DNA of 63,703 nucleotides, counting the filler, from an uncultured Methanosarcinales archaeon (GTDB lineage Archaea > Nanobdellota > Nanobdellia > Woesearchaeales > UBA12501), in assembly GCA_964397315.1 (NCBI GenBank). It is 3 parts of 3 records of this genome, joined end to end, with 100 filler letters (N's around TTAATTAATTAA, not from the genome) between each part and the next. Parts side by side here need not be neighbours in the genome. Positions count along the whole stretch, not along the records: positions 27,444 to 46,778 come from CAYNHV010000003.1; 2 more parts are not named here. One strand, given 5' to 3'. The translations under genes and the position numbers were made by a program. Position 1 is the stretch's first letter; each line of letters opens with the position of its first letter. Positions 28,184 through 46,554 of this stretch are shown here, in pieces. The notes beneath the pieces are model-generated. The model did not search any database. It was not told where the DNA came from and worked only from the letters and a program-made list of their open reading frames with translations.

Positions 28184-28212
28184 TTTTTACTACGTTTTAG
28201 TTCGGGAATATG

Positions 28213-28800: not shown

Positions 28801-28818
28801 TTTCTGACCCCTCTTTTA

Positions 28819-29397
28819 TCATTCTTCTCCCCCTCCACCTTTTGAGGGTTTTTTCTCGTGCGTGATAAAGAGTATGACTATTATCACAACCACAAGCAGG
28901 ATTATTGAGGCTGTGTAGCTTGTCGCCCAGTTGTTTGCAAGGAAATTCCAGAAAACCCCGAGCCAGCTTTCCCCTCCCTCTGTCTTTATAGCATTGAGGA
29001 ATATCATCACTATTATGACAAACACCACGATCATGAAGAAGCTCCTCCAGCTCCCGACCAGAGAGACCTGCTCTTCATAATGGTAGAATGAGCCCACAAG
29101 CAGCAGGAAGCTTATTGAGACAAGCAGCAGGAGGACTATGTTGGCCATTGCCTCATTGATTGCAGCCACAAGCCTGGTTGATATCACCACAAGGAAGCCC
29201 ACCACAAACGCGACAATCGCATTGATGTTCTTCTTTGTGTACTCAACCCCTTCTATCTTCTCCACGCCAAGGACTCTTGTCTTTTCCAGCACAGCGAACA
29301 CTATGGCAAAAACGAGAAGAAAGGGCAGCACAACATCATAGATTCCAATTTCATCAAGGAATAGCAGTGCACCTCTGAACACTGATTCATCAGCCAT
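28819..29397 (-). CDS. Membrane protein, paralog 1 of tandem trio
   Basis: DVVLPFLLVFAIVFAVLEKT..LG...KNINAIVA; start moved to 29397 because ATG 29424 abuts a BRE/TATA (CGAAACATTTATATA). Confidence 0.85.
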   Translation of the reverse strand: MADESVFRGALLFLDEIGIYDVVLPFLLVFAIVFAVLEKTRVLGVEKIEGVEYTKKNINAIVAFVVGFLVVISTRLVAAINEAMANIVLLLLVSISFLLLVGSFYHYEEQVSLVGSWRSFFMIVVFVIIVMIFLNAIKTEGGESWLGVFWNFLANNWATSYTASIILLVVVIIVILFITHEKKPSKGGGGEE

Positions 29398-29503
29398 TAT
29401 GAGCTGAATTAAATGGTTGTTCATATATAAATGTTTCGTTTTAAAAAACTTTATAAAAAGCCCTTATTAACTTAATATCAGCGCACAGAGAGGTGGGTTT
29501 AAG

Positions 29504-30079
29504 ATGAAGAACACTGCTGAGATTGCTGACTTTTTTTACGAGCTTGGCCAGCTCAAGAGGGTGAAGAGAAGCGGATTCTGGCTTCTCGGAATAGACAATC
29601 CTGAGAGTGTGGCAGAGCACAGCTTCAGGGCAGCGGCAATAGGGCTTGTGCTGGCAAAGATGGAGGGAGCTGACTCATCAAGAGTTGTTGAGATGTGCCT
29701 TTTCAATGACGCTCATGAGAGCAGGCTTAATGACCTCCACAAGGTGGGCCACAGGTACATTGACTTCAGGGCAGCAGAAACACAAGCCCGCAAGGAGCAG
29801 GCAAATGGCCTGGGCAGCATAGGCAAAGAGATTTTATCGCTGCACGAGGAATTCCAGGATCAGGAAACAAAAGAAGCTGTTGTGGCAAGGGACGCTGACC
29901 TTCTTGAGAATGCTGTGCAGGCAAGAGAGTATGTGAAGGCAGGATACAGGGACGCGCAGAACTGGATAGAAAATGTAAAGAAGGTTCTCAGGACAGAGAG
30001 CGCGAAAGAAATTCTCAGGGAGGCAGAGAAGAGAGACCCCAATGAGTGGTGGAAAGGCCTCAAAAAAATAGAAAGATAA
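29504..30079 (+). CDS. HD-domain hydrolase (YfbR/HDDC2-like)
   Basis: LKRVKRSG, ESVAEHSFR, DADLLE; the HD dyad reads ND. Confidence 0.8.
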   Translation: MKNTAEIADFFYELGQLKRVKRSGFWLLGIDNPESVAEHSFRAAAIGLVLAKMEGADSSRVVEMCLFNDAHESRLNDLHKVGHRYIDFRAAETQARKEQANGLGSIGKEILSLHEEFQDQETKEAVVARDADLLENAVQAREYVKAGYRDAQNWIENVKKVLRTESAKEILREAEKRDPNEWWKGLKKIER

Positions 30080-30149
30080 AATAGAAAGAATAATAAGATA
30101 GATAAAAAGATAATCCGGCAGAGGGGCAGGCAAAAGCAGGTGAGAGGCA

Positions 30150-31106
30150 ATGGGCATTTCTATCAGAAAAGCAGCAGAAACAGCGCTGAAGCAGTGTATG
30201 AAACTAAGGAAGGGAGAGACCCTTCTTGTCATAACTGACAGGAAAAGAAAAAGAATAGGTGAGGCGCTGTTTGACAGCGGAATTGAGGCAGGAGCCAGGG
30301 CTGTGCTTGCAGAGATTCCTGAGGGAAAGATGCACGGAGAGGAGCCTCCTGAGAGCCTTGCGGGAATGATGAAAAGCTTTGACGTTATAATGGCCCCCAC
30401 CACAAAATCACTGAGCCACACAGATGCTGTGAGAAACGCCTCAAAGAGCGCGAGGATAGCCACACTGCCGGGAATAACAGAAGAGGTCTTCAGGAGAGGC
30501 ATGTCAGCTGACTACAACAGCATTGCAGAGAGGACCAACAGGATTAAGAAGGCTTTGAACAGGTGCAGGAAGATAAGGGTTGTTACAGCCAAAGGCACCG
30601 ACATAACCATGGGAATGGGCAGGAAGATGGACACCAGAAAAAAGGAGGGGATGATACACAGAAAAGGCCAGGTGAACAATCTTCCTGCAGGAGAGGCGGG
30701 ATTCGCACCTGCACAGGGAACTGCAGAAGGTGTCTTTGTTGTTGACGCCAGCTTCGGAGGCGTTGGAAAAGTGGACAGGCAGGTGAGGATAAGAGTAAAA
30801 AAAGGCTGTGCAGTAAGGATTGAAGGAGGGAAGGCAGCAGAAAAGCTGAGGAAAATGCTAAGAAGATGCGGAAAAGAGGCTTACAACATAGCTGAGCTGG
30901 GAATAGGCACAAACAACAAAGCCAGGATTTCCGGCGTTGTGCTTGAGGATGAGAAGGTCATGGGCACAGCCCACATTGCTCTTGGGAACAGCAGGGGCAT
31001 GGGCGGCAGTGTTTATGCTCCGTGCCACCTTGACGGGGTTTTCAGAAACCCGACAATATACGCGGACAGCAGGAAGATAATGCACAAAGGAAAATTATTA
31101 ATATAA
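30150..31106 (+). CDS. M29-type aminopeptidase
   Basis: NLPAGE, IAELGIGTN, EDEK..GTAHIALG, HLD. Confidence 0.85.
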   Translation: MGISIRKAAETALKQCMKLRKGETLLVITDRKRKRIGEALFDSGIEAGARAVLAEIPEGKMHGEEPPESLAGMMKSFDVIMAPTTKSLSHTDAVRNASKSARIATLPGITEEVFRRGMSADYNSIAERTNRIKKALNRCRKIRVVTAKGTDITMGMGRKMDTRKKEGMIHRKGQVNNLPAGEAGFAPAQGTAEGVFVVDASFGGVGKVDRQVRIRVKKGCAVRIEGGKAAEKLRKMLRRCGKEAYNIAELGIGTNNKARISGVVLEDEKVMGTAHIALGNSRGMGGSVYAPCHLDGVFRNPTIYADSRKIMHKGKLLI

Positions 31107-31135
31107 TGGAGTGAGAGAAGAAAGAGGGTGAGACA

Positions 31136-31762
31136 ATGGAGATTGAAGGAGTCAATATTGAATGGCTGGGCCACGCAGGCTTCAAGGTAAAGAATGACAG
31201 GGTGATATACACAGACCCTTTCAGGATTGAAGGGGGAGAGAAGGCTGATCTCATACTCTTATCCCATGAGCATTTTGACCACTGCAGTGTTGAGGACATA
31301 AAAAAGATAATAAAGCCAGAAACCATAATTGTCACAGTGCCTGACTGCCAGAGCAAACTGTCAGGCCTGGAGATAGCAAACGTAACCCTTGTGAGGCCCG
31401 GAGACAAGGTGAATGTGCAGGGCACCGAGATAGAGGCAGTGGCTGCTTATAACAAGGACAAGCAGTTCCACCCCAAGGAGAATGAATGGGTGGGCTTTGT
31501 GTTCAGGGTCAACGGAAAAAGGATATACCATGCAGGAGACACTGACCACATACCTGAGATGAATTCACTAAAAGACATTGACATAGCCCTTGTCCCTGTG
31601 TGCGGAACTTATGTGATGACAGCAGAAGAGGCTGCAGAAGCAGTGAACAGCGTCAGGCCAAAAGTGGCAATCCCCATGCACTATGGGAGTGTTGTCGGAA
31701 AGAAGGAGGATGCAGAGAGGTTCAGGGAGAAGTGCCGGGTTAGGGTTGAGGTTCTGGGCTGA
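31136..31762 (+). CDS. Metallo-beta-lactamase-fold hydrolase
   Basis: WLGHA, SHEHFDH, YHAGDT, IPMHY. Confidence 0.9.
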   Translation: MEIEGVNIEWLGHAGFKVKNDRVIYTDPFRIEGGEKADLILLSHEHFDHCSVEDIKKIIKPETIIVTVPDCQSKLSGLEIANVTLVRPGDKVNVQGTEIEAVAAYNKDKQFHPKENEWVGFVFRVNGKRIYHAGDTDHIPEMNSLKDIDIALVPVCGTYVMTAEEAAEAVNSVRPKVAIPMHYGSVVGKKEDAERFREKCRVRVEVLG

Positions 31763-31817
31763 TAATATCATTTATTGACAGCAACAACAGTAGAATCTCT
31801 TGTCCATCACCACCACC

Positions 31818-32207
31818 CTATGCTTTCCAGAGGCCGTGGATATTGCAGTATTCCCTTGCTGTCAGGCCCTCTGCAGACTGCTCAAGGCAGAACTCTGCCT
31901 CAGGCTTCTCTCCTGGATAAAGCCTTGCAGATGCAATCACCTTTCCTTCTTTCAACACTTCAATAAGCTTTATGTGGTGCTCCTCCTCCATTGGATGAGG
32001 GACAGAGCCCACCTTAACATTCACCTTATTCCCTTCTGTCTCCGCCACTGGCACGTGCTTTTCCCTGCCTTCCTGCTCCTTTCCCTTTGGCTCCTGCTTT
32101 TCCATTTCCTTATCGCAGCATACGAGACTGCCTTCGTGAGCCTCCAGCACCTCTACAACATTGCCGCATACTGAGCATTTGTATATCGCGTCCTTTTCAG
32201 CCATCAT
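31818..32207 (-). CDS. dfx: Desulfoferrodoxin / superoxide reductase
   Basis: CSVCGN...CC, EKHVP, HPM...HHI, CNIHGLW. Confidence 0.92.
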   Translation of the reverse strand: MMAEKDAIYKCSVCGNVVEVLEAHEGSLVCCDKEMEKQEPKGKEQEGREKHVPVAETEGNKVNVKVGSVPHPMEEEHHIKLIEVLKEGKVIASARLYPGEKPEAEFCLEQSAEGLTAREYCNIHGLWKA

Positions 32208-32213
32208 TTCACC

Positions 32214-32498
32214 TCACTCCCCGACCTCTTCTTTTACTTCCTTCTTTCCTGCTTCAAGCTCCTCAGCCTGCTGCTTGTCCCTGTTGAGAAGCATTGCCTG
32301 GAACTCTCCGACATGGGTTTTCTCCTCCTTTGCCACGTCAAGCAGTATCTCCTTCAGGTTCTTGTCCCTGGCAAGGCCCGCCATCTGCTCGTAAAGGTTT
32401 ATGGCGTCAAGCTCGGCTATTATGGCTGCCCTGAGTATCTCTGTGTCAATGCTCTTCTCATCAATTTTTTCAAGATCTATTGGTATTTTTGAAAGCAT
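32214..32498 (-). CDS. Short ferritin-like protein (EncFtn/Flp-like)
   Basis: AELDAINLYEQ, EEKTHVGE; SD AGGAGGTG. Confidence 0.8.
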   Translation of the reverse strand: MLSKIPIDLEKIDEKSIDTEILRAAIIAELDAINLYEQMAGLARDKNLKEILLDVAKEEKTHVGEFQAMLLNRDKQQAEELEAGKKEVKEEVGE

Positions 32499-32538
32499 TT
32501 TTGCCACCTCCTATTTTTCGGTGTGTTCTGCTGTATTC

Positions 32539-33087
32539 TTACATTCCGCAGCACTCGCAGTCTTCCTGAAAGCACATGCACTCAGGCTCGTAATATTCCC
32601 TTTCATGCTTGCAGGACGGGCATTCCTCTGGAGGCTCCTTGCCCTTGTATATGTAGCCGCACTTGCTGCACTTCCACCTTATGGGCCTCTCCCTTTTGAA
32701 AACAGCGCCCTTTTCCACCATCTCAAGAAGTTTCCTGTACCTTGCTTCATGCTGTTTTTCCACTTCTGCCACTTCCCTGAAGAGCTTTGCAGCCTCATCA
32801 TTCCCCTCCTCTTCTGCATCCTTCTGCATCTTGGGGTACATCTCTGAGTTCTCGTAATGCTCCCCCGCAATGGCTGCCTTGAGGTTGGCCTTTGTGTCGC
32901 CTATTCCTTTCAGGAGCTTGAACTCGTCCTTTGCGTGCTGCATCTCATTAAGCGCGGTCTCCTCAAATATCCTTGCTATGTACAGGTAGCCCTCTTTTCT
33001 GGCTACCTTTGCGAAATAATCATACTTGTTTCTCGCCTGGCTCTCGCCGGAGAATGCTTTTTTCAGGTTTTCCTCTGTTTTTGTCAT
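32539..33087 (-). CDS. rbr: Rubrerythrin
   Basis: GESQARNKY, EMQH, GEHYE, EKQH, CSKCGY...CPSC. Confidence 0.92.
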   Translation of the reverse strand: MTKTEENLKKAFSGESQARNKYDYFAKVARKEGYLYIARIFEETALNEMQHAKDEFKLLKGIGDTKANLKAAIAGEHYENSEMYPKMQKDAEEEGNDEAAKLFREVAEVEKQHEARYRKLLEMVEKGAVFKRERPIRWKCSKCGYIYKGKEPPEECPSCKHEREYYEPECMCFQEDCECCGM

Positions 33088-33203
33088 TCTTATTACCCCC
33101 TAAGATGTTATTATTACTGTCTTATTCCTCTATACAATAGCATATATACATTGTCAGATTACTATTTAACTGTTTTGGTTTCCGGAAAGAAACCATGAGC
33201 AAG

Positions 33204-33251
33204 TCACTTTTTCTTCTTCTTTTTTGACCCGCAATGGCCGCAGCTCATCAT
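33204..33251 (-). CDS. Putative micropeptide MMSCGHCGSKKKKKK
   Basis: GAGGTGA SD at 33253-33259; CxxC plus poly-Lys; 25 nt downstream of ogg. Confidence 0.45.
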   Translation of the reverse strand: MMSCGHCGSKKKKKK

Positions 33252-33276
33252 ATCACCTCTGAAGGGGATGGCTGTT

Positions 33277-33915
33277 TCATTTAAGTATTTTTCCTGTCTC
33301 CATGTACCACAAGTATAGATCAAGCTCTGCAGGGCTTGCGCCTGCCTCATCTGCAAGACGCTTCAGCTTTTCCTCTATAGCCATGTACTTTGAAGGCGTC
33401 AGTGACTTGGGCCTTCTTATGAGCATGTTCCTTGAAAGAATGTCTATTATGTGGAAGTCTATTATTGCCAAGCCCTCATGCCCTGTGTTCCTGAGGAAGT
33501 GGCTTGCCTCCTTGTATCCTATGCCTTTTATGTTTCTGACAAGCCACTCCCGGGCTTCGGCAGAATTTTGCGACGATCTTATCGCATCCTTTATCCTTCT
33601 TTTGTGTTTCCTTGCCTCTGCAATATAACCTGCTCTTTTTGTATGGAACCTGCACGAATGCTGCCTCAGCTTTTCCTTTAGCTGCCTCTCAGGCAGCCTG
33701 AGAAAGCCGGATCCAACCTTGGTGTGGACATCAATGCATCTCTCTGCTGTTGAATTAGCAGTCAGGATGCAGAAGCACAGCTCCCTGAAGTAATCATCAT
33801 CTCCTCCTCTGCCGGTTTTCCTGAATTCTCTCATCCTGCGGTCAACCAGCCTGCCAACCCCGCTTCTCCTGAGCTTCTTAACCTCATCCTGAATGCTTCC
33901 CATGGAATAAACCAC
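33277..33915 (-). CDS. ogg: 8-oxoguanine DNA glycosylase/AP lyase
   Basis: ELCFCILT, KGIGYKEASHFLRN, IIDFH, LDLYLWY.ETGKILK. Confidence 0.9.
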   Translation of the reverse strand: MVYSMGSIQDEVKKLRRSGVGRLVDRRMREFRKTGRGGDDDYFRELCFCILTANSTAERCIDVHTKVGSGFLRLPERQLKEKLRQHSCRFHTKRAGYIAEARKHKRRIKDAIRSSQNSAEAREWLVRNIKGIGYKEASHFLRNTGHEGLAIIDFHIIDILSRNMLIRRPKSLTPSKYMAIEEKLKRLADEAGASPAELDLYLWYMETGKILK

Positions 33916-34200
33916 CTGAATAAATCAACTAATAAACCAACCCCCTGCAAATAAAATATTTGACTAATGGAAATGCCGCCTTTTATATTTTGTCTTTTCC
34001 TGATTCTGCATATGGGATATACCCCTGGAATATGCCTGTGGAATACTGCAAATATTGCATTCAGGAAGAGTGCTGCGGCTGCAGCAGCACCGGACAGTCG
34101 GACAATACCCTATGATAATATTTATATATCATAAGGACATGCAGTAAAACAGTGATATATAATAATATACAAAGATTAAATCGCTAAAAGAGGTGGTAGA

Positions 34201-34956
34201 ATGTTTGACCTTAACGGCAAGACTGCTGTTGTTACAGGCTCGCGAAGGGGCATAGGCAGGAGCATAGCTGAAAGGCTTGCGTATGCAGGAGCCAAGGTTG
34301 TTATTTCTGACATTGAACAGGAAGACTGTGAAAAGACTGCAGGAGAGATTGCAGAGAGATTCGGCGTTGATGCCCTCGGCATCAAGTGCGATGTGAGCAG
34401 CAAGGATGAGGTGGAGAATCTCATCAGCAGGACAATTGAAAAATTCGGCAGGATTGACATTCTTGTCAACAATGCAGGGGTGTTCAAGCTCAAGCCGCTC
34501 CTTGAATTCACTGAAGAGGAATGGATGAAGATCATTGACATCAACCTCAAGGGCACCTATCTTTGCTCACAGGCAGCGGCACGGGAGATGATGAAGAACA
34601 ATTACGGCAAGATAATAAGCGTGGCCTCAATAGCAGGTATTATAGGATTCCAGGGGGCTTCTGCCTACTGCGCGAGCAAGGCAGGAATAATAAACCTGAC
34701 AAGGGAGATGGCAATGGAGTTCTCCAAACACAAGATAAACGTGAACGCTGTCGCGCCGGGAATAATAGAGACCACTATGACAGAATCTATAAGGAACAAT
34801 GAGGAGATGTACAAGAGCATAATGGCCAATGTGCCGTGGGGAAGGCACGGCCAGCCCTCTGACATAGCCAATGCAGTCCACTTCCTCGCTTCTGACGAGG
34901 CAGATTATGTGACAGGCCAGACCCTTGTTGTGGATGGCGGGTGGACAATACATTAA
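34201..34956 (+). CDS. Short-chain dehydrogenase/reductase
   Basis: TGSRRGIG, NNAG, YCASK. Confidence 0.92.
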   Translation: MFDLNGKTAVVTGSRRGIGRSIAERLAYAGAKVVISDIEQEDCEKTAGEIAERFGVDALGIKCDVSSKDEVENLISRTIEKFGRIDILVNNAGVFKLKPLLEFTEEEWMKIIDINLKGTYLCSQAAAREMMKNNYGKIISVASIAGIIGFQGASAYCASKAGIINLTREMAMEFSKHKINVNAVAPGIIETTMTESIRNNEEMYKSIMANVPWGRHGQPSDIANAVHFLASDEADYVTGQTLVVDGGWTIH

Positions 34957-35024
34957 CAGTCCTGATCAGCTACTGGTCAGCCATTCTCAATAAAGGGATT
35001 TTTGGGAATCCTGGGAAAAAGAGC

Positions 35025-35246
35025 ATGGCAAAGAAAAACACCGAGAAATGCCCGAACTGCGGTTCTGAAAACACAGAGCTTGTTGAGTACATGGGATTAA
35101 GGTGCCTTGTGTGCGGTAAATGCGGTTATGACGAGAGGAACGAGCTTGAGACAACGCCCCAGCAGAGGGAAACACAGAGGGAGAAAAGGAGATACAGCCC
35201 TTACAGGAGAGGCGGCAGGATGCTCCGTTCTGTAAAGAGGGGCTGA
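35025..35246 (+). CDS. Small Zn-ribbon protein
   Basis: CPNCGS...CGKCGY. Confidence 0.7.
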   Translation: MAKKNTEKCPNCGSENTELVEYMGLRCLVCGKCGYDERNELETTPQQRETQREKRRYSPYRRGGRMLRSVKRG

Positions 35247-35311
35247 AAGCAGAAGCCATGTTATGGAAGCACACCAAAATATTAATATAGGGCTGAGTCA
35301 ACATACCCCAA

Positions 35312-35857
35312 ATGAAAGATGTTATAAGGTGGGGGCATCCTTTTGAGATAATCTACAAGGAGCATATTGAAAACTATTTTGAAAAGGGTGAACAACCTGA
35401 GGATAATCTCGCGCAGATTCTCCTCAAAGAAATTCCTGTTGCGCTGTATCATGTTAACCCTGATAATCCAGAGCAGTTAAAAACATTGTGGTCTCCTGTG
35501 CATCCTGTAAGATATCATGTGTGGCCGGAGCTTCTTGGAGTTAACCATGACAGATGTGGTGAAGGAATAATCAGAATGGGTTATTCCATCCTGGTGAGGG
35601 ACTTGAGCAAAAGTAACGGAAGAAAGACCTCCTGGCTTCTCCCACGCCAGCCTGAATTTGGCGAGAAAAGATTCTACCTGCACCCTGATGCTGCTTCAGG
35701 GAACAATGGTTCTTCTTTTGGCGTGAGCATGGCCGAAGGCTCAAACATAACGAATGTCTACCTCTGCAGGGGAGACCCGTCAAGGATTCTTAATGAATTG
35801 GAAAGGGAGGGCTTCTCATTCATTAAAGAGCCCATGGGACAACTGGTGAAGGAATAG
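35312..35857 (+). CDS. Hypothetical protein
   Basis: 181-aa ORF behind an AT-rich TATA-like element. Confidence 0.6.
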   Translation: MKDVIRWGHPFEIIYKEHIENYFEKGEQPEDNLAQILLKEIPVALYHVNPDNPEQLKTLWSPVHPVRYHVWPELLGVNHDRCGEGIIRMGYSILVRDLSKSNGRKTSWLLPRQPEFGEKRFYLHPDAASGNNGSSFGVSMAEGSNITNVYLCRGDPSRILNELEREGFSFIKEPMGQLVKE

Positions 35858-36080
35858 GATGCATCCCCACAGGGAAGCTGGAGGAATTTGCCAGGGAAGG
35901 CTTCTAATGATTCCATATTAGATGGTGGAAGGGTTCCGCAGGCTTGAGAGGCTCATTTCTCTCTTTTTCTGCCTGACTCTCCTGCCTGCAGATATAATCA
36001 TCATGCAATCATCATCCCTTCCATCTGAAAGCCATGTTCCTTAAAAACCTTTATAAACAAGCTGTTATACCGGAATTTTG

Positions 36081-38312
36081 ATGAAACGAACCCATACATG
36101 CGGAGAGCTGACAAAAAAGCATGAAAAGAAGAAGGTCACGCTCCAGGGATGGGTGGGCACAAGGAGAGACCATGGCGGCCTGATATTCATAGACCTGAGG
36201 GACAGGCACGGCATCACCCAGATAGTGCTTGACCCGAAATCAAAGGGCTTTGAGCAGGCAGAGCACCTCAGGAGAGAGGACTGCATCCAGGTTACAGGAG
36301 ATGTGAGGCCCAGGCCAAAGGACATGGAAAACCCCGGTCTGAAGACAGGCTACATTGAGGTTTACGTGTCAAAAGAGCTGTTCATACTCAACAAGGCGGA
36401 CACGCCCCCTCTTGAGGTTGATGACAGGAAGGTTGCCAATGAAGAGGCGAGGATGAAGTACAGGTATATTGATTTGAGAAGGCCTGAGATGCAGGAGAGG
36501 CTTGCATTAAGGCACAAGGTGGCTCAGGAAGCGAGAAATTATCTCACTTCAAAAGGCTTTCTGGAGATAGAGACTCCCATGCTTGTGAGGGCAACTCCTG
36601 AAGGGGCAAGGGATTATGTTGTTCCCTCAAGGGTCAACCAGGGAAAGTTCTATGCTCTTCCCCAGTCACCCCAGCTCTACAAGCAGCTGCTCATGGTGTC
36701 AGGCTTTGACAGATATTTCCAGATTGTAAAGTGCTTCAGGGATGAGGACCTGAGGGCAGACAGACAGCCTGAGTTCACCCAGATTGACATGGAAGCAAGC
36801 TTCGTGGACGAGGAGGACATATTCAGCATCGTAGAAGGGATGATGTGCAGGCTGCTTGAGATAATAGGGGTTAAGGTAAAAAAGCCTTTCCCAAGGATGA
36901 CATACCGCGAGGCAATGGAGAGGTACGGCTCTGACAAGCCGGACACAAGATTCGGGCTTGAGCTTGTTGACGTGACAGACATTGTTAAGGATTCAGATTT
37001 TGAGGTTTTCACAAAGGCAATAAGCTCAGGCGGAAAGGCAAAATGCATTAATGCAAAGGGATGCGCGGAATTCTCAAGAAAAGAGATTGAAGAGTTGACT
37101 GACTTTGCCGCAATATATGGGGCAAAAGGCCTTGCGTGGATGAAGGTCAATGACAAGGGAGAGCTTGAAAGCTCAATAATGAAATTCTTCCCTGAGAAGG
37201 TGCAGAAGGAGCTTGCCGGAAGGACAGGCGCGGAAAAAGGCGACCTTCTCCTGTTCGTCTCAGACCACAAGCACTTTGTTGTTGACGACTCCCTAGGGAA
37301 CCTAAGGCTGAAGCTGGGTGAAAAGCTCGGCCTCATACCAAAGGACAGGTTCAGCTTTGTGTGGATCACAGACTTTCCGCTTCTGGAGTATGATGAGGAT
37401 ATGCAGAGGCACATAGCAGTGCATCATCCTTTCACATCCCCAAAGGAGGAGGACCTGCCGCTCATGGACAAGGATCCCTCAAATGTGAGGGCCAGGGCGT
37501 ATGATCTCACTCTCAATGGAGTTGAGCTTGGAGGGGGTTCAATAAGGATACGCCGGAGGGAAGTGCAGGAGAGAATGTTCAGGGTTCTTGGAATAACAAA
37601 AGAGGAGGCAGAGCAGAAGTTCGGTTTCCTCCTCAACGCTTTCAGGTACGGAGCTCCCCCTCATGGAGGCATTGCATTCGGCTTTGACAGGCTCATAGCG
37701 CTCATGGCAGGAGTGCCTGATAATGACATCAGGGAAGTGATAGCATTCCCAAAGAACAAGGCAGCAGAATCCCCTGTTGACGGAGCTCCCACAGACATAG
37801 ACCCTGAACAGCTGAAGGAGCTGAGCATCAAGTCCACTGCTGAGGAGAGAAGCGGCGTGTTTGAAAGAATAAAGGACATGCTTGACGCCAAAGGCATTGA
37901 CTATGAAGTTCTGGAGCACGAGCCGGTGTTCACCTCAGAGAAGGCTGCTGAGGCAAGGGGAACAGGCAGGAAGCAGGGCTGCAAGGCGCTTGTCGTGAAG
38001 AAACAGAAGGGGTATGTAATGGCTGTCGTGTCAGGAGACAGCGAGCTTGACCTCAAAAAGCTGTCCTCTGTAACAGGGGAGAGCAGGTTAAGGCTGGCCA
38101 ACGCAGAGGAAGTAAAGCAGGTGACAGAATGCCACATCGGGTCAGTCCCTCCCTTCGGAAACCTGTTTGACATTCAGGTGTATTTTGACAGGGCAGTCAG
38201 CAGGAATGAGACAGTGGCTTTTAGTGCAGGCTCTCACACAAGTTCAATAAAGATGAAGTACAAGGACCTTTTGTCAGTCACAAAAGGCAAGGAAGCGGAG
38301 TTCTCCAAATGA
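36081..38312 (+). CDS. aspS: Bacterial-type aspartyl-tRNA synthetase with C-terminal YbaK/ProX domain
   Basis: RTHTCGEL, RRDHGG, PQSPQLYKQ, FRDEDLRADRQPEF, GAD insert, PPHGGIAFGFDR; then EH..VFTS..AA, KALVV, GSVPPFG. Confidence 0.92.
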   Translation: MKRTHTCGELTKKHEKKKVTLQGWVGTRRDHGGLIFIDLRDRHGITQIVLDPKSKGFEQAEHLRREDCIQVTGDVRPRPKDMENPGLKTGYIEVYVSKELFILNKADTPPLEVDDRKVANEEARMKYRYIDLRRPEMQERLALRHKVAQEARNYLTSKGFLEIETPMLVRATPEGARDYVVPSRVNQGKFYALPQSPQLYKQLLMVSGFDRYFQIVKCFRDEDLRADRQPEFTQIDMEASFVDEEDIFSIVEGMMCRLLEIIGVKVKKPFPRMTYREAMERYGSDKPDTRFGLELVDVTDIVKDSDFEVFTKAISSGGKAKCINAKGCAEFSRKEIEELTDFAAIYGAKGLAWMKVNDKGELESSIMKFFPEKVQKELAGRTGAEKGDLLLFVSDHKHFVVDDSLGNLRLKLGEKLGLIPKDRFSFVWITDFPLLEYDEDMQRHIAVHHPFTSPKEEDLPLMDKDPSNVRARAYDLTLNGVELGGGSIRIRRREVQERMFRVLGITKEEAEQKFGFLLNAFRYGAPPHGGIAFGFDRLIALMAGVPDNDIREVIAFPKNKAAESPVDGAPTDIDPEQLKELSIKSTAEERSGVFERIKDMLDAKGIDYEVLEHEPVFTSEKAAEARGTGRKQGCKALVVKKQKGYVMAVVSGDSELDLKKLSSVTGESRLRLANAEEVKQVTECHIGSVPPFGNLFDIQVYFDRAVSRNETVAFSAGSHTSSIKMKYKDLLSVTKGKEAEFSK

Positions 38313-38959
38313 CACGCCAGAAAGGAATAATAAAACCAAAACTTGTGGTATTTGACCTTGACGGAGTGATATTTGAGCATGATAATTTCTACAGCCAGAT
38401 GCATGAGAGGTACAGCACAGAAGAAAAGGGCAGAGCCCTTGAGAGAAAGTACCTGAAGAGCAACACGCAAAAGCTGGCAGAGCTTGTGATAGGAAAGCTC
38501 TGGGCAGGAAAGAGCGACAGGGAATACTGGAGCCTGATAGAGAAAGCCAGATTTAATCCAGGAGCTGAGGAGGCAGTAGCAGAGCTGAAGAGAAAGGGCA
38601 TAAAGACGATGATACTCACCTCTGCTGTTGAGGACCTTGCCAGAAAGGCCCAGAAGGAGCTTGGCATAGATTATGTGGCTGCAAACTGGATGGAAACAAA
38701 AGAGGGGAAAATAACAGGCAGGTTCAGGTGGAGGATATTATGGGACGGCAAGGGCCTCATTCTGGAGGACTTCTGCAGGGACAATGGAATAAGGCTTGAG
38801 CAGACCGCATGCGTTGGGGATAATGAGAATGATGTGTCCATGATGAGAAAAGCGGGCTTGAGCATAGCATTCAATACCCGCTCTGAAACACTGAAAGAGC
38901 AGTGTGATGTTGTGATAGACAGCAATGACCTTAGGGAAATACTTAAATATGTCAGCTGA
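38309..38959 (+). CDS. HAD phosphatase, phosphoserine-phosphatase-like
   Basis: FDLDG, ILTS, K, VGDNEND. Confidence 0.85.
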   Translation: MTRQKGIIKPKLVVFDLDGVIFEHDNFYSQMHERYSTEEKGRALERKYLKSNTQKLAELVIGKLWAGKSDREYWSLIEKARFNPGAEEAVAELKRKGIKTMILTSAVEDLARKAQKELGIDYVAANWMETKEGKITGRFRWRILWDGKGLILEDFCRDNGIRLEQTACVGDNENDVSMMRKAGLSIAFNTRSETLKEQCDVVIDSNDLREILKYVS

Positions 38960-38971
38960 AAATTCCATTTC

Positions 38972-39826
38972 ATGGTTCTGCAGCAGGGGCTCATCTTCGC
39001 GATAATAACACTCCTTGGGTGGGGAGCGTCCAAGGTAGTGGTCAAGCCAGCAATAAGGAGTATGGGGCCTTACAATGCGCTCTTCTACGAGCACCTATTC
39101 GTGGCCCTCGCCCTGGCTCTCTTCTCCTCACCATTCATTGACCTTGTCATGCCTGGAACAGGGATTCTGCTTCTGCTGGCAGGGGCAATGATTGTAGGCG
39201 CTCTTGCAGTATACTCCCTCTTCAGGGCTTTTGACATAGGAAAGCTGTCAATAACAGCCCCAATAGCCCAGTCTGCCACAATATTCACTGTTCTCCTCTC
39301 CTACTTCATATATGAGGAGCAGGTAAGCCTTCTGCAGGCGCTGGCAATCGTGCTGCTCATAATAGGGGTGATCATGATATCATTCAGGTATTCAGACCTG
39401 AAAAGGATAAGGGTAAGCAGGGCAGCTCCCGGAGCAGGATTCGCAGCCCTTACAATGGTCGGCTGGGGCCTTTATTACTTCATGATAAAGCCTGTTGTGA
39501 TTGAGCTGGGCCCTCTCCTCTCTGTGGTATATCTGGAGGTGGGAATCTTAGTTATGATAGCGCTGCCCCTTCTGCTGGGAAAGGCAAGGGTTCCTGACAG
39601 GACAGTCTGCTGGACATTCTTCTCCGGAATCCTCGTGGCGCTGGCTGCATGGGCGTTTAACATGGGAATAATGCGGGCGCCGGTGTCAATAATACACCCT
39701 GTTGCAAACAGCTCAGTGCTTGTGACAGTACTCCTCTCCCGCTTATTTCTGAAGGAGAGGATAGAAACCAACCAGAAAGCGGCAATATTTTTAATAATCA
39801 CAGGACTGATATTTATATCAATATGA
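38972..39826 (+). CDS. EamA/DMT family transporter
   Basis: Ten TM segments in two repeats; LSRLFLKE. Confidence 0.85.
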   Translation: MVLQQGLIFAIITLLGWGASKVVVKPAIRSMGPYNALFYEHLFVALALALFSSPFIDLVMPGTGILLLLAGAMIVGALAVYSLFRAFDIGKLSITAPIAQSATIFTVLLSYFIYEEQVSLLQALAIVLLIIGVIMISFRYSDLKRIRVSRAAPGAGFAALTMVGWGLYYFMIKPVVIELGPLLSVVYLEVGILVMIALPLLLGKARVPDRTVCWTFFSGILVALAAWAFNMGIMRAPVSIIHPVANSSVLVTVLLSRLFLKERIETNQKAAIFLIITGLIFISI

Positions 39827-39827
39827 G

Positions 39828-40520
39828 ATGATAAAAAAGATGGCCATGGACAGGAAAAATAAGAACCGGAAAAGATACCTGCTTGTATGCTTTGACCTTG
39901 ACGGCACAATAGTTGACAAGATAACCAGCATCTGGAAGTTCATAGGCTGTGAGTTCGGGGTTGACCCTGTCAGGAGGGAGAAGGGAACAAGGGAATTCTT
40001 TGACAACATAATATCCTATGATGAATGGGTGGGCAATGATGTCAGGCTGTGGATGGAGAAGGGCATAACAAAGGACCGGTTCATAAGGGCAGTAAGGAAA
40101 CTTAAGCTTATGAGGGGGGCGAGAGAGGCTCTTGACAAGCTCAGGGCAGAAGGCGTGAAGCTTGCTGTGATATCAGACGGTCTTGACATTGTCCTTGAAG
40201 CCCTGATGCCTGATTACAGGAATGTTTTTGATGATGTTTTCATTAACAGGCTGAAGTTTGACAGCAGGGGCAGGCTTGAGGGATGGCAGGCCACTGAATA
40301 CTGCATGGACAGGAAAGCAGACGGCCTTAAAGCAATAGCAAAAAGAGAGGGTATCAGCCTTAGCAAGTGCGCCTTTGTGGGGGACGAGTCCAATGACATA
40401 GGGGCTGTCAGGCTGGCGGGGCTTGGAATAGCATTCAACAGCAGCTCTGAAGAGCTGAACAGGGCGTGTGACATTGTGGTGAGGAAGAAGGACCTCAGGG
40501 AGATTCTAAAATACCTTTAA
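39828..40520 (+). CDS. HAD phosphatase, phosphoserine-phosphatase-like (paralog)
   Basis: FDLDGT, ISDG, VGDESND. Confidence 0.85.
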   Translation: MIKKMAMDRKNKNRKRYLLVCFDLDGTIVDKITSIWKFIGCEFGVDPVRREKGTREFFDNIISYDEWVGNDVRLWMEKGITKDRFIRAVRKLKLMRGAREALDKLRAEGVKLAVISDGLDIVLEALMPDYRNVFDDVFINRLKFDSRGRLEGWQATEYCMDRKADGLKAIAKREGISLSKCAFVGDESNDIGAVRLAGLGIAFNSSSEELNRACDIVVRKKDLREILKYL

Positions 40521-40576
40521 ACCACCATAAACTATATAAAACAACGCGCCTAATGCAGGAGGAGGGTGCAGGAATC

Positions 40577-40861
40577 ATGGAAATCAGCAGGGAGCTAATA
40601 TCAAGAGTGGCTGAGAACGCAAAGCTTGACCTCACAGAGGAAGAGATAAGGGAGTTCACGCCCCAGCTTAAGGAGGTTCTGGAGTTCTTCTCAGAGATTG
40701 ACAAGGCAGACACAAAAGGTATCGAGCCCAGTATGCAGCCTGTTGAGATCAGGAACGTGATGAGGGAGGACAAGAGAGGGGAAAGCCTGAGCCAGGAGGA
40801 GGCTCTCTCAAACACAGAGCACAAGAAGGACGGCTACTTCAAGGGGCCGAAAGCAGTATGA
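40577..40861 (+). CDS. gatC: Asp/Glu-tRNA amidotransferase subunit C
   Basis: VA.NAKL.L..EE, NVMRED, GYFKGP; upstream of gatA and gatB. Confidence 0.88.
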   Translation: MEISRELISRVAENAKLDLTEEEIREFTPQLKEVLEFFSEIDKADTKGIEPSMQPVEIRNVMREDKRGESLSQEEALSNTEHKKDGYFKGPKAV

Positions 40862-40883
40862 ACTTGAGTTACAAGGTATCAAA

Positions 40884-41630
40884 ATGCTAAAGACAGACCT
40901 TCACATACATTCAGTCCACAGCGGGCATGCCTACGGCACATTTTATGATATAATAAACGAAGCAAAGAGGAAGGGAATGAGAATGATAGCCCTGACCGAC
41001 CACGGCTCCTCAATGCCCGGAGCGGCATCAAAGGTGCACTTCAAGAGCGGTTTCAGAAAGCCTGAGACATGCAGCCTGAAGGTGCTTTGGGGATGCGAAG
41101 CCAACATAATTGACAGAGAGGGAACGCTGGATCTTGACAGTGACATCCTCAGGAAGCTTGACATTGTAATAGCCGGGCTGCACATAGGAACATCCTTCAG
41201 GGATGAGGGAAGGGAGGGGAACACCACAGCCATTATAAACTGCCTGAAGAGGTATCCCATCCATATACTTGCCCACCCTTACACAAAATATTATGATTAT
41301 GACATAAGCAGGGTGTGCAGGGCCGCCTGCGATAACGGCGCGCTTATAGAGCTCAACCTTTCATCACTGGCACGCCTTGATGAGGGAAGCAAGAGAACAA
41401 GCATTGAGGATGTGAAGACAGCGGTCAGGACAGCAAGGGACAATGGAAAGAGGGTAATCGTTTGTTCTGACGCCCACTTCCTGCATGAGATAGGGGATGA
41501 CAGCCTGCTTGAGAAATACAGGGATGAGCTGGGCATTGATGATGACATGATAATCAACAATTTTCCTGAAGAGCTGGACGAATTCATGAGGGAGAGATCA
41601 GAAAAATGGAAGGAACTGCAGGAAGCATAA
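40884..41630 (+). CDS. PHP-domain phosphatase (YcdX-like)
   Basis: DLHIHS..SGHAY, TDH, AHP, SDAH. Confidence 0.85.
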   Translation: MLKTDLHIHSVHSGHAYGTFYDIINEAKRKGMRMIALTDHGSSMPGAASKVHFKSGFRKPETCSLKVLWGCEANIIDREGTLDLDSDILRKLDIVIAGLHIGTSFRDEGREGNTTAIINCLKRYPIHILAHPYTKYYDYDISRVCRAACDNGALIELNLSSLARLDEGSKRTSIEDVKTAVRTARDNGKRVIVCSDAHFLHEIGDDSLLEKYRDELGIDDDMIINNFPEELDEFMRERSEKWKELQEA

Positions 41631-43042
41631 AAGAGTTTGCTGAAAAAGTAAGGTCAGGAAAGGCAGACCCTGTCAGCCACACAAAGAAGGTTCTTGATGA
41701 GCTGAAAAAGACAGACATGGATTATCATTACTTCAACCTGATATCAGAGGAGCTGGCACTTGAGCAGGCCGAAAGAGTCAGGGAAAATCCCGCAGGAAAG
41801 CTGGCAGGGGTTCCTGTTTCTGCAAAGGACTGCATACTTGTCAAAGGCATTGAGTCAACAGCAGGAAGCAGGATACTTGAGGGTTACAAGCCATTATTCA
41901 ATGCAACTGCAGTTCAGAAGTGCATTGATGAAGGCGCCATAATAATAGGCAAGACAGCGCAGGACGAGTTCGGGTTCGGAGGGTTCTCAGCAAACACAGG
42001 CCAGGGATTCAGGACTCCTTTAAATCCTTTTGACAAGGAGAGGGCCTGCGGAGGGAGCTCAGGAGGCTCAGGTGGCATAACCAAGAAGGCGTCATTCCCC
42101 CACTTCTCTCTGGGGGAGAGCACAGGAGGCTCCATTGTCAACCCTGCATCATTCTGCGGGGTCTACGGGCTGTGCCCTACCTACGGCAGGGTGTCAAGGA
42201 ACGGGCTTATTGACTACGGCAACAGCCTTGACAAGATAGGGCCGATGGCAAGGAGCATGGAGGATGCTGCCTACGCGCTTGAGATAATCTCAGGCCATGA
42301 CAGCAGTGACTCAACAAGCCTGAACAAGCCTGTTGAAGAGTACTCCTCCCACGCGGGAAAGGGAGTTAAGGGCATGAAGATAGGCATCATAAAAGAAGCA
42401 TTCGGAGAGGGTGTTGATGAGGGGATCAAGGATGCTGTCAGGAAAGGCATAGGCAGCCTGGAAAAGAAAGGCGCGGAGTGCGAGGAGATCTCTCTTCCGA
42501 TAACATCAAAACACGGGCTGTCAGCTTATTACATAATCTCTGCCTCAGAGGCTTCAACAAACCTGGCAAGATACTGCGGCATGAGATACGGCAGGCATGA
42601 GAAGCTTGAGGGAAGCTTCAGCGACTACTTCAGGAAGGTAAGGAGCAGCAATCTCGGCAGGGAGGCAAAGAGAAGGATAATAATAGGAACTTTCGCCAGA
42701 ATGGCTGGGTTCAGGGACGCGTATTACATGAAGGCAATGAGGATAAGAACCAAAGTCATTGAGGAGTACAAGAAGGCATTCAGCAAGTATGATGTTCTGG
42801 CTTCACCCACAGTTCCGGCAGCAGCGCCAAGGTTTGACGAGATAAAGAAGATGAGCCTGCTCCAGAGCTATATGTTTGACAAGCTCACAGTGGGGCCCAA
42901 CCTTGCTGGCCTGCCTCACATTAATGTTCCAGCGGGATTTGAAAAGAAGGACGGAAAGGATCTGCCTGTGGGGATGATGCTTGTGGCAGGCCACCTCCAG
43001 GAGTCAAAACTGGCAAGGGCAGGAGGGGTGTTTGGAGAATGA
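41606..43042 (+). CDS. gatA: Amidotransferase subunit A
   Basis: KD, GGSSGGS, STGGSI..PA, EAKRRI..G. Confidence 0.92.
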   Translation: MEGTAGSIKEFAEKVRSGKADPVSHTKKVLDELKKTDMDYHYFNLISEELALEQAERVRENPAGKLAGVPVSAKDCILVKGIESTAGSRILEGYKPLFNATAVQKCIDEGAIIIGKTAQDEFGFGGFSANTGQGFRTPLNPFDKERACGGSSGGSGGITKKASFPHFSLGESTGGSIVNPASFCGVYGLCPTYGRVSRNGLIDYGNSLDKIGPMARSMEDAAYALEIISGHDSSDSTSLNKPVEEYSSHAGKGVKGMKIGIIKEAFGEGVDEGIKDAVRKGIGSLEKKGAECEEISLPITSKHGLSAYYIISASEASTNLARYCGMRYGRHEKLEGSFSDYFRKVRSSNLGREAKRRIIIGTFARMAGFRDAYYMKAMRIRTKVIEEYKKAFSKYDVLASPTVPAAAPRFDEIKKMSLLQSYMFDKLTVGPNLAGLPHINVPAGFEKKDGKDLPVGMMLVAGHLQESKLARAGGVFGE

Positions 43043-43728
43043 GGATAGAAGATATGACATCAGAGGAGATTAGGAACAAGCAGAAAGAGACAAGAACAGT
43101 CATTGTTCCCATAAGCCCCATAGAGCAGCACGGCCCTCACCTGACAATATCACCTGATCACCTCATAGGGTATGAGGTTTCAAGGAAAGCGGCAGAAGAA
43201 ACAGGGGTTTTCTGCCTCCCTCCCCTCACCCTAGGATACAATCACAAGGGCTCCTCATTTCCGGGCACTGTCTCAATCTCAACCGAAACCCTGAAATCTG
43301 TTGTCAGGGATTTGTGCAGCTCGCTGGAGAGGACAGGCTTCAGGAGGATAATAATCATCTCGGGCCACGCAGGTGGAGGCCATGTCAGGGCTATTAAAGA
43401 GACTGTTGAGGGGCATGACAACATATCCTTTTTCACAGTGAGAGACCTCACAAGCAAAGTTGTAGGCGGCCTGATTGATACAAAGGATGACAGGCACGCA
43501 GGAGAGAAGGAGACATCCCTCATGCTCTACCTTGCTCCAGGCCATGTGAGGATGGACAGGGCAGTGAGCTCATTCCCTGATTATCCCGATGACATAACAC
43601 CAGAGGAATACATGAGGGGCAACCCGTCAGGGGTTTATGGAGATCCCACAAAAGCTACAAAAGAAAAGGGCGAGAAGCTGTTCAGGACTGCGGTAGAAGA
43701 GCTGGCGGGAATTATTGGAGAAAAGTGA
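43039..43728 (+). CDS. Creatininase family amidohydrolase
   Basis: EQHGPHL..D, FPGT, SGH.G, HAGEKETS. Confidence 0.88.
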   Translation: MRIEDMTSEEIRNKQKETRTVIVPISPIEQHGPHLTISPDHLIGYEVSRKAAEETGVFCLPPLTLGYNHKGSSFPGTVSISTETLKSVVRDLCSSLERTGFRRIIIISGHAGGGHVRAIKETVEGHDNISFFTVRDLTSKVVGGLIDTKDDRHAGEKETSLMLYLAPGHVRMDRAVSSFPDYPDDITPEEYMRGNPSGVYGDPTKATKEKGEKLFRTAVEELAGIIGEK

Positions 43729-43743
43729 GAAGGGCGGAAGATA

Positions 43744-45165
43744 ATGAAGGAGAACAAATTCAAGTCAGACATTGTGATAGGGCTTGAGATTCATGTGGAG
43801 CTTGACACAGAAACAAAGCTCTTCTGCAGCTGCTCCACAGAGAATGCTGAAGAGCCCAACACCCACACCTGCCATGTGTGCCTCGGCCACCCTGGCTCAA
43901 AGCCCGTGCTGAACAGGGAGGCTGTTGATTACGGCATAAGGCTGTGCCTTGCCCTGGGCTGCACAATAAGCAAGAGGCTATTTTTCTCAAGAAAAAGCTA
44001 CTTTTATCCTGACATGGCAAAGAACTACCAGATAACACAGTATGAGGTGCCTCTCGGAGAGGGAGGGAAGTTGAGGGCCAATGACGAGAAAGAGGTTGGG
44101 CTGGTGAGGGTCCATCTTGAGGAGGATCCAGCCTCGCTTGTGCATCCCGAAGGCATGCAGGCAAGCAGCTTCGTGCTTGTTGACTACAACAGGTCGGGGA
44201 GGCCTCTTGCAGAGGTAGTGACAAAGCCTGAGATTAACAGCCCTGCAGAAGCAAGGGATTTCATGAAGAAGCTCATAACAGTTCTTAATTACATAGGAAT
44301 ATTTGACAGGGAGAACTGCGTGATTAAGGCTGACGCTAACGTGAGCGTGAAGGAAACAGGGTATGTGAGGGCAGAAGTGAAGAACATAACAGGATTCAGG
44401 GAGATTGAAAGGGCTCTCAAGTATGAGGTTGACAGGCACAGGAAGGCTGCAAGCAGGGGAGAGGACATAGTGCAGGAGACAAGAGCCTGGGATGCATCAA
44501 AAGGCGTTACATCAAGGATAAGGGTTAAGGAGACTGAGGAGGACTATGGGTACATACTTGACCCGGACCTTGTGGCAGTAGACCTGACTGACGACTGGAT
44601 CTCTGATGTGAAGAATGGGATGCCTGAACTCGCGCAGGATAAGGTGCAGAAGTTCGTGAAGGATTATGGCATTGACAGGACCGACGCTGAGGTGATAGCA
44701 GAAGAGAGAATACTTGCAGAGCTGTTTGAGAAGGTCGCGGAGAAAGTGAATCCTGTTCTTACAGCAAGATGGCTGAGGAGGGAGCTTGTAAGAGTTATGA
44801 ACTACAATGACCGGGCTTTTGAAGAGCTGGACATTGACGAGAAGCATCTTGTTGAGCTGCTGGAAATGATTGAGAAAAAGGAGATAACCGACAATGTGGC
44901 AAAGCAGATAATGGAGAAGCTCATGGAAGAGCCGTTCTCTCCAAGGGATTATGTCCGGGCAAAAGGCCTCAGGGTGATGTCTGACGAGTCAGAGCTTGAG
45001 TCAATATGCAGTCAGGTTGTTAAGGAGAATCCAGAGGCTGTGGCCGAATATGCGGCAGGAAATGAGAAGTCAATCCACTTCCTTATAGGCCAGGTCATGA
45101 AAAAGACAAAAGGCCAGGCAGCTCCCGCGAAAGTGCATGAGACGCTTAAGAAGATGGTTGGATAA
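43744..45165 (+). CDS. gatB: Amidotransferase subunit B
   Basis: IGLEIHVEL, RKSYFYPD, HLEED, DYNRSG, EVKN. Confidence 0.95.
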   Translation: MKENKFKSDIVIGLEIHVELDTETKLFCSCSTENAEEPNTHTCHVCLGHPGSKPVLNREAVDYGIRLCLALGCTISKRLFFSRKSYFYPDMAKNYQITQYEVPLGEGGKLRANDEKEVGLVRVHLEEDPASLVHPEGMQASSFVLVDYNRSGRPLAEVVTKPEINSPAEARDFMKKLITVLNYIGIFDRENCVIKADANVSVKETGYVRAEVKNITGFREIERALKYEVDRHRKAASRGEDIVQETRAWDASKGVTSRIRVKETEEDYGYILDPDLVAVDLTDDWISDVKNGMPELAQDKVQKFVKDYGIDRTDAEVIAEERILAELFEKVAEKVNPVLTARWLRRELVRVMNYNDRAFEELDIDEKHLVELLEMIEKKEITDNVAKQIMEKLMEEPFSPRDYVRAKGLRVMSDESELESICSQVVKENPEAVAEYAAGNEKSIHFLIGQVMKKTKGQAAPAKVHETLKKMVG

Positions 45166-45170
45166 TAGGA

Positions 45171-46394: not shown

Positions 46395-46554
46395 CAATAT
46401 CCCCTTTATAGGCCTGAGAGCCTCTCATTTAAATATTATTGGGTTTCCAGGCTATTCTTTATCATACATCATTTATTCATTCACTACTAAACAATGATGA
46501 TAAAATAGAAACATTTATATATCACAATATCATTACCTCCCTTGTGATGCCTGT

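Follow-up and report, generated by a model that had tools for sequence, protein, structure and literature searches.

In a 63,703-nucleotide stretch of DNA (the window) from a Woesearchaeal (DPANN) genome (GenBank assembly GCA_964397315.1), we identified a gene encoding a bacterial-type aspartyl-tRNA synthetase (AspRS) fused, in one reading frame, to a C-terminal editing domain that sequence comparison places in the YeaK/ProXp-ST1-like branch of the INS superfamily and not with YbaK. We document this architecture, its predicted fold, its intact active-site residues and the recurrent coupling of its clade to aspS. To our knowledge, AspRS is regarded as a synthetase needing no proofreading, and the fusion puts a known editing fold, in cis, on an enzyme that is not known as an editor. 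The comparative data speak for a specific tie between the domain and AspRS more than for random piggy-backing, and we hold, with slightly better than even confidence, that the domain is an AspRS-coupled post-transfer editing module, which would remove a wrong acyl group from tRNA-Asp or tRNA-Asn and spare L-Asp.

The fused gene and the family of its editing domain

The gene is a single open frame to position 38312, with no stop codon or frame change, and an in-frame TTG at 36078 provides an alternative start that would lengthen the product to 744 aa (Table 1). Residues 1–587 were assigned to bacterial-type aspS by the NCBIfam model TIGR00459 (796 bits, cut-off 374), and NF001750 also matched the AspRS part (857 bits). 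A first-pass annotation of the window had described a GAD-containing bacterial-type AspRS in an archaeon that runs in frame into an editing domain, and a domain-architecture search bore this out: one open frame holds four Pfam domains, in the order oligonucleotide-binding (OB) fold, catalytic core, GAD and tRNA_edit. The archaeal setting is supported by genes for GatD, deoxyhypusine synthase, CDC48 and pyruvoyl arginine decarboxylase (ArgDC). The full-length AlphaFold2 model, built from an alignment of 58 fused homologues, had a mean predicted local distance difference test score (pLDDT) of 86 and a predicted template modelling score (pTM) of 0.70. The low pLDDT of the residues between synthetase and editing domain suggests that a short flexible tether holds the last domain on the synthetase.

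Contigs from three public runs bridge the junction, which the first-pass annotation had marked for checking at 37830–37860, with 0 differing letters and 0 indels. They span 37709–38400, 37716–38400 and 37431–38088, and are assembled contigs, not reads, from three runs of one study, one of which is possibly the source sample. No RNA data set was listed as containing the stretch. Recurrence in independent assemblies is the stronger argument that the fusion is real. Among the 120 best homologues taken from a search of a 5.8-billion-protein collection, 92 (query included, 54–74% identity) have the same four-domain architecture, and the fused homologues, where named by their source, are from Woesearchaeota/Nanoarchaeota. 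The bridging contigs and the recurrent architecture together rule out a frameshift or assembly artefact.

Comparison with known editing proteins placed the C-terminal domain closer to YeaK than to YbaK. In BLASTP it shared 34% identity with E. coli YeaK over 154 residues (86 bits, E 1e-26) and 23% with E. coli YbaK (41 bits), while phmmer against the PDB ranked lpg1207 (3op6; 74 bits, E 1e-19) and the Thermus ProX/ProXp-x protein (2cx5; 51 bits) above APE2540 (45 bits), ProXp-ala (5vxb; 43 bits) and YbaK (25–28 bits). Scores to the YbaK equivalog models fell below their cut-offs (TIGR00011, 72–76 bits against 153; NF007951, 26–29 bits against 243), which, with the low identity to YbaK, rules out membership of that family. 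The first-pass suggestion of a YbaK-type domain was therefore dropped, and the domain lies on the YeaK/ProXp-ST1/lpg1207 side instead. A domain-only model (pLDDT 94.1) has a YbaK-like alpha/beta fold, and Foldseek gave template modelling (TM) scores of 0.81–0.88 to ProX (2cx5), lpg1207 (3op6), APE2540 and YbaK. There were 37 PDB matches at E ≤0.001, and those listed were INS-fold chains, save designed scaffolds on 2cx5 and two longer proteins (9qzk, 3mem).

The putative active site is strongly conserved. H613, R626, K635, G687, P691, G693, D703, F714 and S722 are invariant in the 58 fused proteins (54–72% identity to the query, plus one at 41%), and the H, K, G and P likewise do not vary among 55 relatives, 47 of them free-standing; fused and separate forms have the same active-site motifs. 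The lysine of KALVV and the GSVPP loop, to which the first-pass annotation had drawn attention, are thus both present and conserved. The available text of two sources assigns the catalytic role in the superfamily to this lysine (PMC11286415, PMC3532385). We predict that the last 150 residues are an aminoacyl-tRNA deacylase competent for catalysis, which would act on mischarged tRNA.

A careful domain tree of 98 rows, with YeaK and YbaK of E. coli among them, did not take in tandem-domain proteins, the last 11 fusions to be fetched, or ProXp-ST2 and ProXp-7/8/9 references. All 29 aspS-linked domains fell in one 48-row clade with YeaK nested inside (ultrafast bootstrap, UFBoot, 83; SH-like approximate likelihood ratio test, SH-aLRT, 62). 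Outside it lay a ProXp-ala-like clade (best PDB match 5vxb, 89 bits), a ProX/APE2540-like clade, the ProRS INS domains, an N-terminal edit-ProRS fusion, and YbaK. In this phylogeny, of the kind that the first-pass annotation had called for, YbaK stood apart from the aspS-linked clade, at the moderate support given. Close relatives of the domain also occur in other architectures (P0121, P0123, P0132, P0174, P0252), namely tandem arrays of two or three copies, GmrSD_N-tRNA_edit, and tRNA_edit joined to a D-Ala-D-Ala carboxypeptidase.

Linkage of the domain to aspS across genomes

We examined 201 genomes drawn evenly from the order; counts from this sample are not corrected for relatedness, and four unpublished genomes (G128, G137, G147, G198) are included in the tallies of AsnRS, GatB and D-aminoacyl-tRNA deacylase 2 (DTD2). 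PF04073 was found in 71 of the 201 genomes, at 79 places. We fetched 77 of these places, the other two being the window's own gene, which was read directly, and that of G147, together with four PF04073 loci of close relatives outside the sample, and scanned the fetched loci with the window's AspRS, edit, GatA/B/C and ProRS proteins. The AspRS-edit fusion was present in 19 genomes. Eighteen of these were verified by Pfam or tblastn, four of them being cut by a contig end or broken by an upstream frame break, and the unpublished G147 was counted on its 758-aa frame length alone. In 10 genomes a separate edit gene followed aspS on the same strand at a distance of no more than 150 nt, in three of these adjacent cases beside an archaeal-type aspS, and in four more genomes it lay 0.4–2.5 kb downstream. 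By comparison, for none of the 39 domains of known context outside the clade did a same-strand aspS lie in the 2.5 kb upstream.

The coupling was seen on three AspRS types: bacterial with GAD, bacterial without GAD, and archaeal. A domain-only exhaustive search gave 4826 matches. The domain is also fused to archaeal-type AspRS (P0156 and P0265, of the non-discriminating type; genomes G184, G103 and G077) and to GAD-less bacterial-type AspRS (P0202, P0207), and fused forms occur in bacteria of the Candidate Phyla Radiation (CPR), in a Dojkabacteria metagenome-assembled genome (MAG; L129) and a Microgenomatus MAG (L114). Bacterial-type AspRS lacking the entire GAD domain (about 450–475 aa) was also seen in several relatives (G017, G021, G034 and G036; L030 7315–8736 (-); L077).

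The fusion coexists with ProRS editing in two genomes, one with an INS-bearing ProRS (G066) and one with a ProRS carrying an N-terminal edit domain (G087), and the AspRS-linked domain is not redundant with ProRS editing there. The latter gene (L016 630–2618 (-)) encodes a 662-aa archaeal-type ProRS with N-terminal tRNA_edit in a Woesearchaeal MAG, an architecture described for protists. Bacterial-type ProRS with an INS insertion was seen in two Woesearchaeal genomes (G042, L017 1696–3423 (+); G066, L019 1474–3222 (-)).

Candidate targets and alternative explanations

The host AspRS should be non-discriminating. The fusion is the sole class-IIb synthetase of the genome (one PF00152 match), and no AsnRS was found in this 93%-complete MAG, either by an asnS search or among PF00152 matches; gatC, gatA and gatB lie 2–7 kb downstream of the fusion on the same contig and strand. 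According to the available text of one source, GatCAB without AsnRS, in the tRNA-dependent route to asparagine, requires a non-discriminating AspRS (PMC8762117), and from this gene content we predict that the enzyme would also charge tRNA-Asn. The first-pass annotation had reached the same view, partly from the RRDHGG motif. The gene content sustains that view and the motif does not: in aligned AspRS with GAD, histidine occupies the same column in 7 of 8 proteins whose genomes have AsnRS but yielded no GatB, and it is unusable as a marker of non-discrimination.

In the mechanism that we favour, this sole, non-discriminating AspRS would put a wrong acyl group on the 3' end of tRNA-Asp or tRNA-Asn. 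The YeaK/ProXp-ST1-branch deacylase, tethered to it by the short flexible linker, would hydrolyse that group in cis or after rebinding, leaving intact legitimate Asp-tRNA-Asp and the Asp-tRNA-Asn on which GatCAB depends. In the available text of a 2024 review, ProXp-ST1 acts as a Ser/Thr-tRNA deacylase and its relative FthB as a fluorothreonyl-tRNA deacylase (PMC11295145), and this homology suggests, by analogy, that the wrong acyl group may be Ser/Thr-like.

The distribution of the asparagine pathways bears on the target. The 201 genomes comprised 85 with GatB only, 77 with AsnRS only and 28 with both. Among the 19 fused genomes 17 had GatB only, none had AsnRS only and two had both; among the 14 with a separate gene, adjacent or near, the corresponding numbers were none, 12 and two. 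GatB thus accompanies the fused form in 19/19 genomes and the separate form in 2/14, and AsnRS in 2/19 and 14/14, respectively. The fused form is kept where Asp-tRNA-Asn is needed, which makes that intermediate an unlikely target. The 19 fused genomes are spread over 16 family codes and the 14 with a separate gene over 10, with deeper relatedness uncorrected. AspRS of the fused/GatCAB group has RRDHGG and a longer loop before the last OB strand, and the AsnRS-only group has IRTHG-type sequences and a shorter loop. Of the last 11 fused loci to be fetched, 6 have gatC-gatA-gatB downstream on the same strand, the arrangement also seen in the window.

One alternative is that the domain strips Asp from tRNA-Asn, either as quality control of the indirect pathway or so that a relaxed AspRS becomes, in effect, discriminating. 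Separate clade genes do stand between aspS and asnS, consecutively in G053 (aspS-edit-asnS) and with one intervening gene in G201 (aspS-x-edit-asnS); of the 14 adjacent or near cases, 12 come from genomes in which AsnRS but no GatB was found; and other INS-like domains occur within gatCAB clusters in two genomes. One of these, G013, of the same family as the host, has a free-standing ProX/APE2540-like tRNA_edit gene between gatA and gatB (L011 8926–9402 (+)). In the other, G089, a 618-aa protein with an N-terminal tRNA_edit fused to GatB (L018 804–2660 (-), the same as L080) belongs to an aspS-gatC-gatA-[edit-gatB] cluster. Both domains fall outside the aspS-linked clade, however, and we did not count them as the same thing. 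The fused form, with the same active-site residues, occurs in just those genomes that must keep Asp-tRNA-Asn, and destroying an obligatory intermediate while tethered to its producer would be futile, so that we judge this alternative improbable. Still less probable, to the point that we give it very little weight, is a non-catalytic appendage that only binds the acceptor end, aiding tRNA affinity, hand-off to GatCAB or complex assembly. It is generally known that tRNA-binding add-on domains are common on synthetases, and the NCBIfam model NF009460, for an AspRS-GatC fusion, indicates that the AspRS C-terminus accepts pathway partners; an appendage of this kind would not explain why the 58 fused proteins all keep the catalytic Lys, the GxxxP loop and further pocket residues, nor why the same domain is a separate gene in genomes where no GatCAB was found.

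A further alternative, which we consider rather unlikely, is a general trans-editor that clears Ser/Thr (or Ala/Cys) from the tRNAs of other synthetases, as free ProXp-ST1 does, and for which AspRS is a stable, abundant tRNA-binding scaffold. In the available text of the 2024 review, ProXp-ST1 has broad tRNA specificity in vitro, acting on tRNA-Val, -Ile, -Thr, -Ala and -Lys and ignoring N73 (PMC11295145), and this breadth keeps a trans-editor in contention. The flexible linker would suit such a role, as would the position of the domain as the sole PF04073 match, and so the sole INS-family domain, of a genome whose archaeal-type ProRS has no INS. E. coli YeaK and 10 sampled clade members without aspS in the flank fetched also agree with it. 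A random scaffold would be expected to vary, however, and among the rows examined the fusions of the clade were all to AspRS, of three types, with adjacent genes at the aspS 3' end (two non-synthetase fusions, to GmrSD_N and Peptidase_S11, were left off the domain tree). Other INS clades are, moreover, also present in carriers G066, G087, G182, G095, G111 and G090.

Several observations weigh against AspRS-coupled editing, among them the broad specificity of ProXp-ST1 and the lack of any other INS member in the host genome although its own ProRS has no INS domain. We know of no report of AspRS misacylation at a level that needs editing. The support for the aspS-linked clade is moderate at the UFBoot and SH-aLRT values given above, and the fused/separate split matches two AspRS sub-lineages, so that it may be inherited and not selected. 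The module is also dispensable. The clade is carried by only 43 of the 201 sampled genomes, and 10 sampled members have no aspS within about 6 kb on each side (less at contig ends, one contig ending just upstream). A full-length fusion occurs in only 4 of 41 genomes of the genus, family and order, and an unfused AspRS (72–78% identity) is present in G001 and G004 of the same genus. When the AspRS cores of the 120 closest homologues, 92 of them fused and 28 unfused, were placed on a tree, the fused state had to change at least 11 times, and well-supported branches forced 6 of these changes, indicating that the module was lost or detached many times. We nevertheless favour AspRS-coupled editing, given the intact active site, the aspS-specific recurrence, the retention of the domain where Asp-tRNA-Asn is needed, its dispensability, and its co-occurrence with ProRS INS domains.

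The distribution of D-aminoacyl-tRNA deacylases suggests another candidate for the wrong acyl group. DTD2, the archaeal enzyme of this kind, was found in 15 of the 43 clade carriers (35%) and in 116 of the 158 non-carriers (73%). The difference appeared both where AsnRS was present (5/23 carriers, 61/82 non-carriers) and where it was not (10/20 and 55/76), with a naive Fisher p of 8e-6 for DTD2 against clade carriage, uncorrected for phylogeny. DTD1 was uninformative, occurring in only 2 of the 201 genomes, and neither DTD nor DTD2 was found in the host genome. Few synthetases are reported to place a D-amino acid on tRNA, and AspRS is among them, so D-Asp-tRNA would be a natural target, and the scarcity of DTD2 in carriers suggests that D-aspartate may be the wrong acyl group. 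A bolder conjecture, which we put forward as quite unlikely, is that AspRS may be an editing synthetase in many DPANN and CPR organisms, in which the YeaK-like module would correct an AspRS-specific error, notably D-aspartyl-tRNA, and replace DTD2; the change from separate gene to fusion would then go along with reliance on GatCAB, the tether keeping a broad deacylase off Asp-tRNA-Asn.

Genomic setting, related systems and significance

Table 1. Positions, in window coordinates, of the fused gene, its parts and the linked gat genes
Feature	Position	Strand	Details
Whole gene, AspRS fused to YeaK-like editing domain	36081..38312	+	743 aa from ATG, stop included
OB-fold anticodon-binding domain, residues 19–81, holds RRDHGG	36135..36323	+	PF01336, E 1e-16
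Class II catalytic core, bacterial-type AspRS, residues 120–560	36438..37760	+	PF00152 (tRNA-synt_2), E 1e-124
GAD insertion domain, residues 310–401	37008..37283	+	PF02938, E 4e-25
Predicted flexible tether, AspRS C-terminus to editing domain, residues 586–590	37836..37850	+	AlphaFold2 pLDDT <50
INS-superfamily, YeaK/ProXp-ST1-like editing domain (predicted), residues 592–743	37854..38309	+	PF04073, pLDDT, Foldseek, YeaK identity
Pfam tRNA_edit match, residues 613–731	37917–38273	+	PF04073, E 3.8e-33
K635 codon, superfamily catalytic lysine (Lys of KALVV)	37983..37985	+	Invariance in homologues
GxxxP loop, G687-S-V-P-P691 (GSVPP)	38139..38153	+	G687 and P691 invariant
gatC	~40553..40861	+	PF02686, E 4e-19; same contig as fusion
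gatA	41606..43042	+	PF01425 (Amidase), E 5e-112
Creatininase-family gene between gatA and gatB	43039–43728	+	
gatB	43744..45165	+	GatB_N, GatB_Yqey; TIGR00133, 504 bits

The window joins three contigs of a 1.47-Mb genome: the end of C2, C3:1–19335 (CAYNHV010000003.1, positions 27,444–46,778), which holds the fusion, and the whole of C27. The spacers between them, at 27344–27443 and 46779–46878, each consist of 44 N, TTAATTAATTAA and 44 N, and gene neighbourhoods that cross them are therefore not real; gatD (47427–48740), for example, is on a different contig from the fusion despite its apparent closeness. On C3 the fusion is followed, all on the plus strand, by genes for a HAD hydrolase, which overlaps the stop codon of the fusion, an EamA transporter and a second HAD hydrolase, and then by gatC, a PHP-domain gene, gatA, the creatininase-family gene and gatB. 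The slot of the creatininase-family gene is the one occupied in G013 by the tRNA_edit gene.

Elsewhere in the genome, the ProRS is of the archaeal/eukaryal type and the ThrRS is bacterial-type. Two full-length AsnB-type asparagine synthase homologues (C47:1455–2612 and C1:63917–65050) are present in this genome, in which no AsnRS was found. No tRNA-Asp or tRNA-Asn gene was among the 21 tRNA genes predicted by ARAGORN or the 16 by Rfam, and 19 of the 21 ARAGORN genes were predicted with introns, one of 1783 nt; an Rfam scan of the window gave no family at gathering score. C27 encodes a fusion of AdoMet decarboxylase and spermidine-synthase domains (49524–50594 (-)), and adjoining genes for a second spermidine synthase, deoxyhypusine synthase, agmatinase and pyruvoyl arginine decarboxylase make up a compact polyamine/hypusine cluster. 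The low-GC (0.37–0.41) part of C2 contains two very long open reading frames of 1338 and 1269 aa (6714–10730 (-) and 11126–14935 (-)).

Several known proteins resemble parts of this system. E. coli YeaK (ProXp-ST1), annotated in RefSeq as a mischarged aminoacyl-tRNA deacylase, has the H, RGT, AKAL, PPF and FNAG motifs in common with the host domain, but is a single-domain protein with no adjoining aspS, whereas the host domain is fused to AspRS or, in relatives, lies at the aspS 3' end. Legionella pneumophila lpg1207 (3OP6), the best sequence match among solved structures (TM 0.81/0.86), shares the PPFGNL and AGSH motifs, but is an uncharacterised, free-standing bacterial protein. The ProRS INS domain and the ProXp-ala-ProRS fusions of Plasmodium and trypanosomatids, as described in the available text of three sources, likewise place an INS-superfamily domain in a class II synthetase for post-transfer editing (PMC11295145, PMC11286415, PMC3532385). 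The host differs in that the synthetase is AspRS (class IIb), the domain is a C-terminal tail and not an insertion or N-terminal domain, and its INS clade is a different one (bacterial ProRS with INS, 38–42 bits; ProXp-ala, 43 bits). Bacterial SepRS with a ThrRS-type serine-editing domain, in the available account, is also an intact-looking appended editor on a synthetase not known to edit, with stand-alone copies near pathway genes (PMC8762117), but it has the tRNA-Thr-ED fold, an N-terminal fusion and another synthetase. The AspRS-GatC bifunctional protein (NF009460) is likewise a bacterial-type AspRS with a C-terminal partner, and its model matches host residues 6–590, but at 690 bits against a cut-off of 1379; the host tail is a predicted deacylase domain, and gatC is a separate gene.

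A full-text literature search, with Liu 2015 and Kuzmishin Nagy 2020 outside its reach, found no description of an AspRS with an INS-type domain. In the available text of the 2024 review, the INS-superfamily members other than INS are single-domain, and the only fusions named are those of ProRS and a plant C-terminal domain (PMC11295145).

Many ultra-small archaea and bacteria share the pairing, which hints at a way of correcting errors not so far described for AspRS. The repeated occurrence of an intact editor on, or encoded next to, AspRS of three kinds, in both archaea and bacteria, would imply an error in the translation of Asp or Asn codons that organisms with reduced genomes pay to correct. 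The fusion bears on the fidelity of the tRNA-dependent asparagine pathway, on the role of uncharacterised YeaK relatives such as lpg1207, and on a possible influence of stress from D-amino acids or hydroxy-amino acids on the translation machinery of symbiotic microbes.

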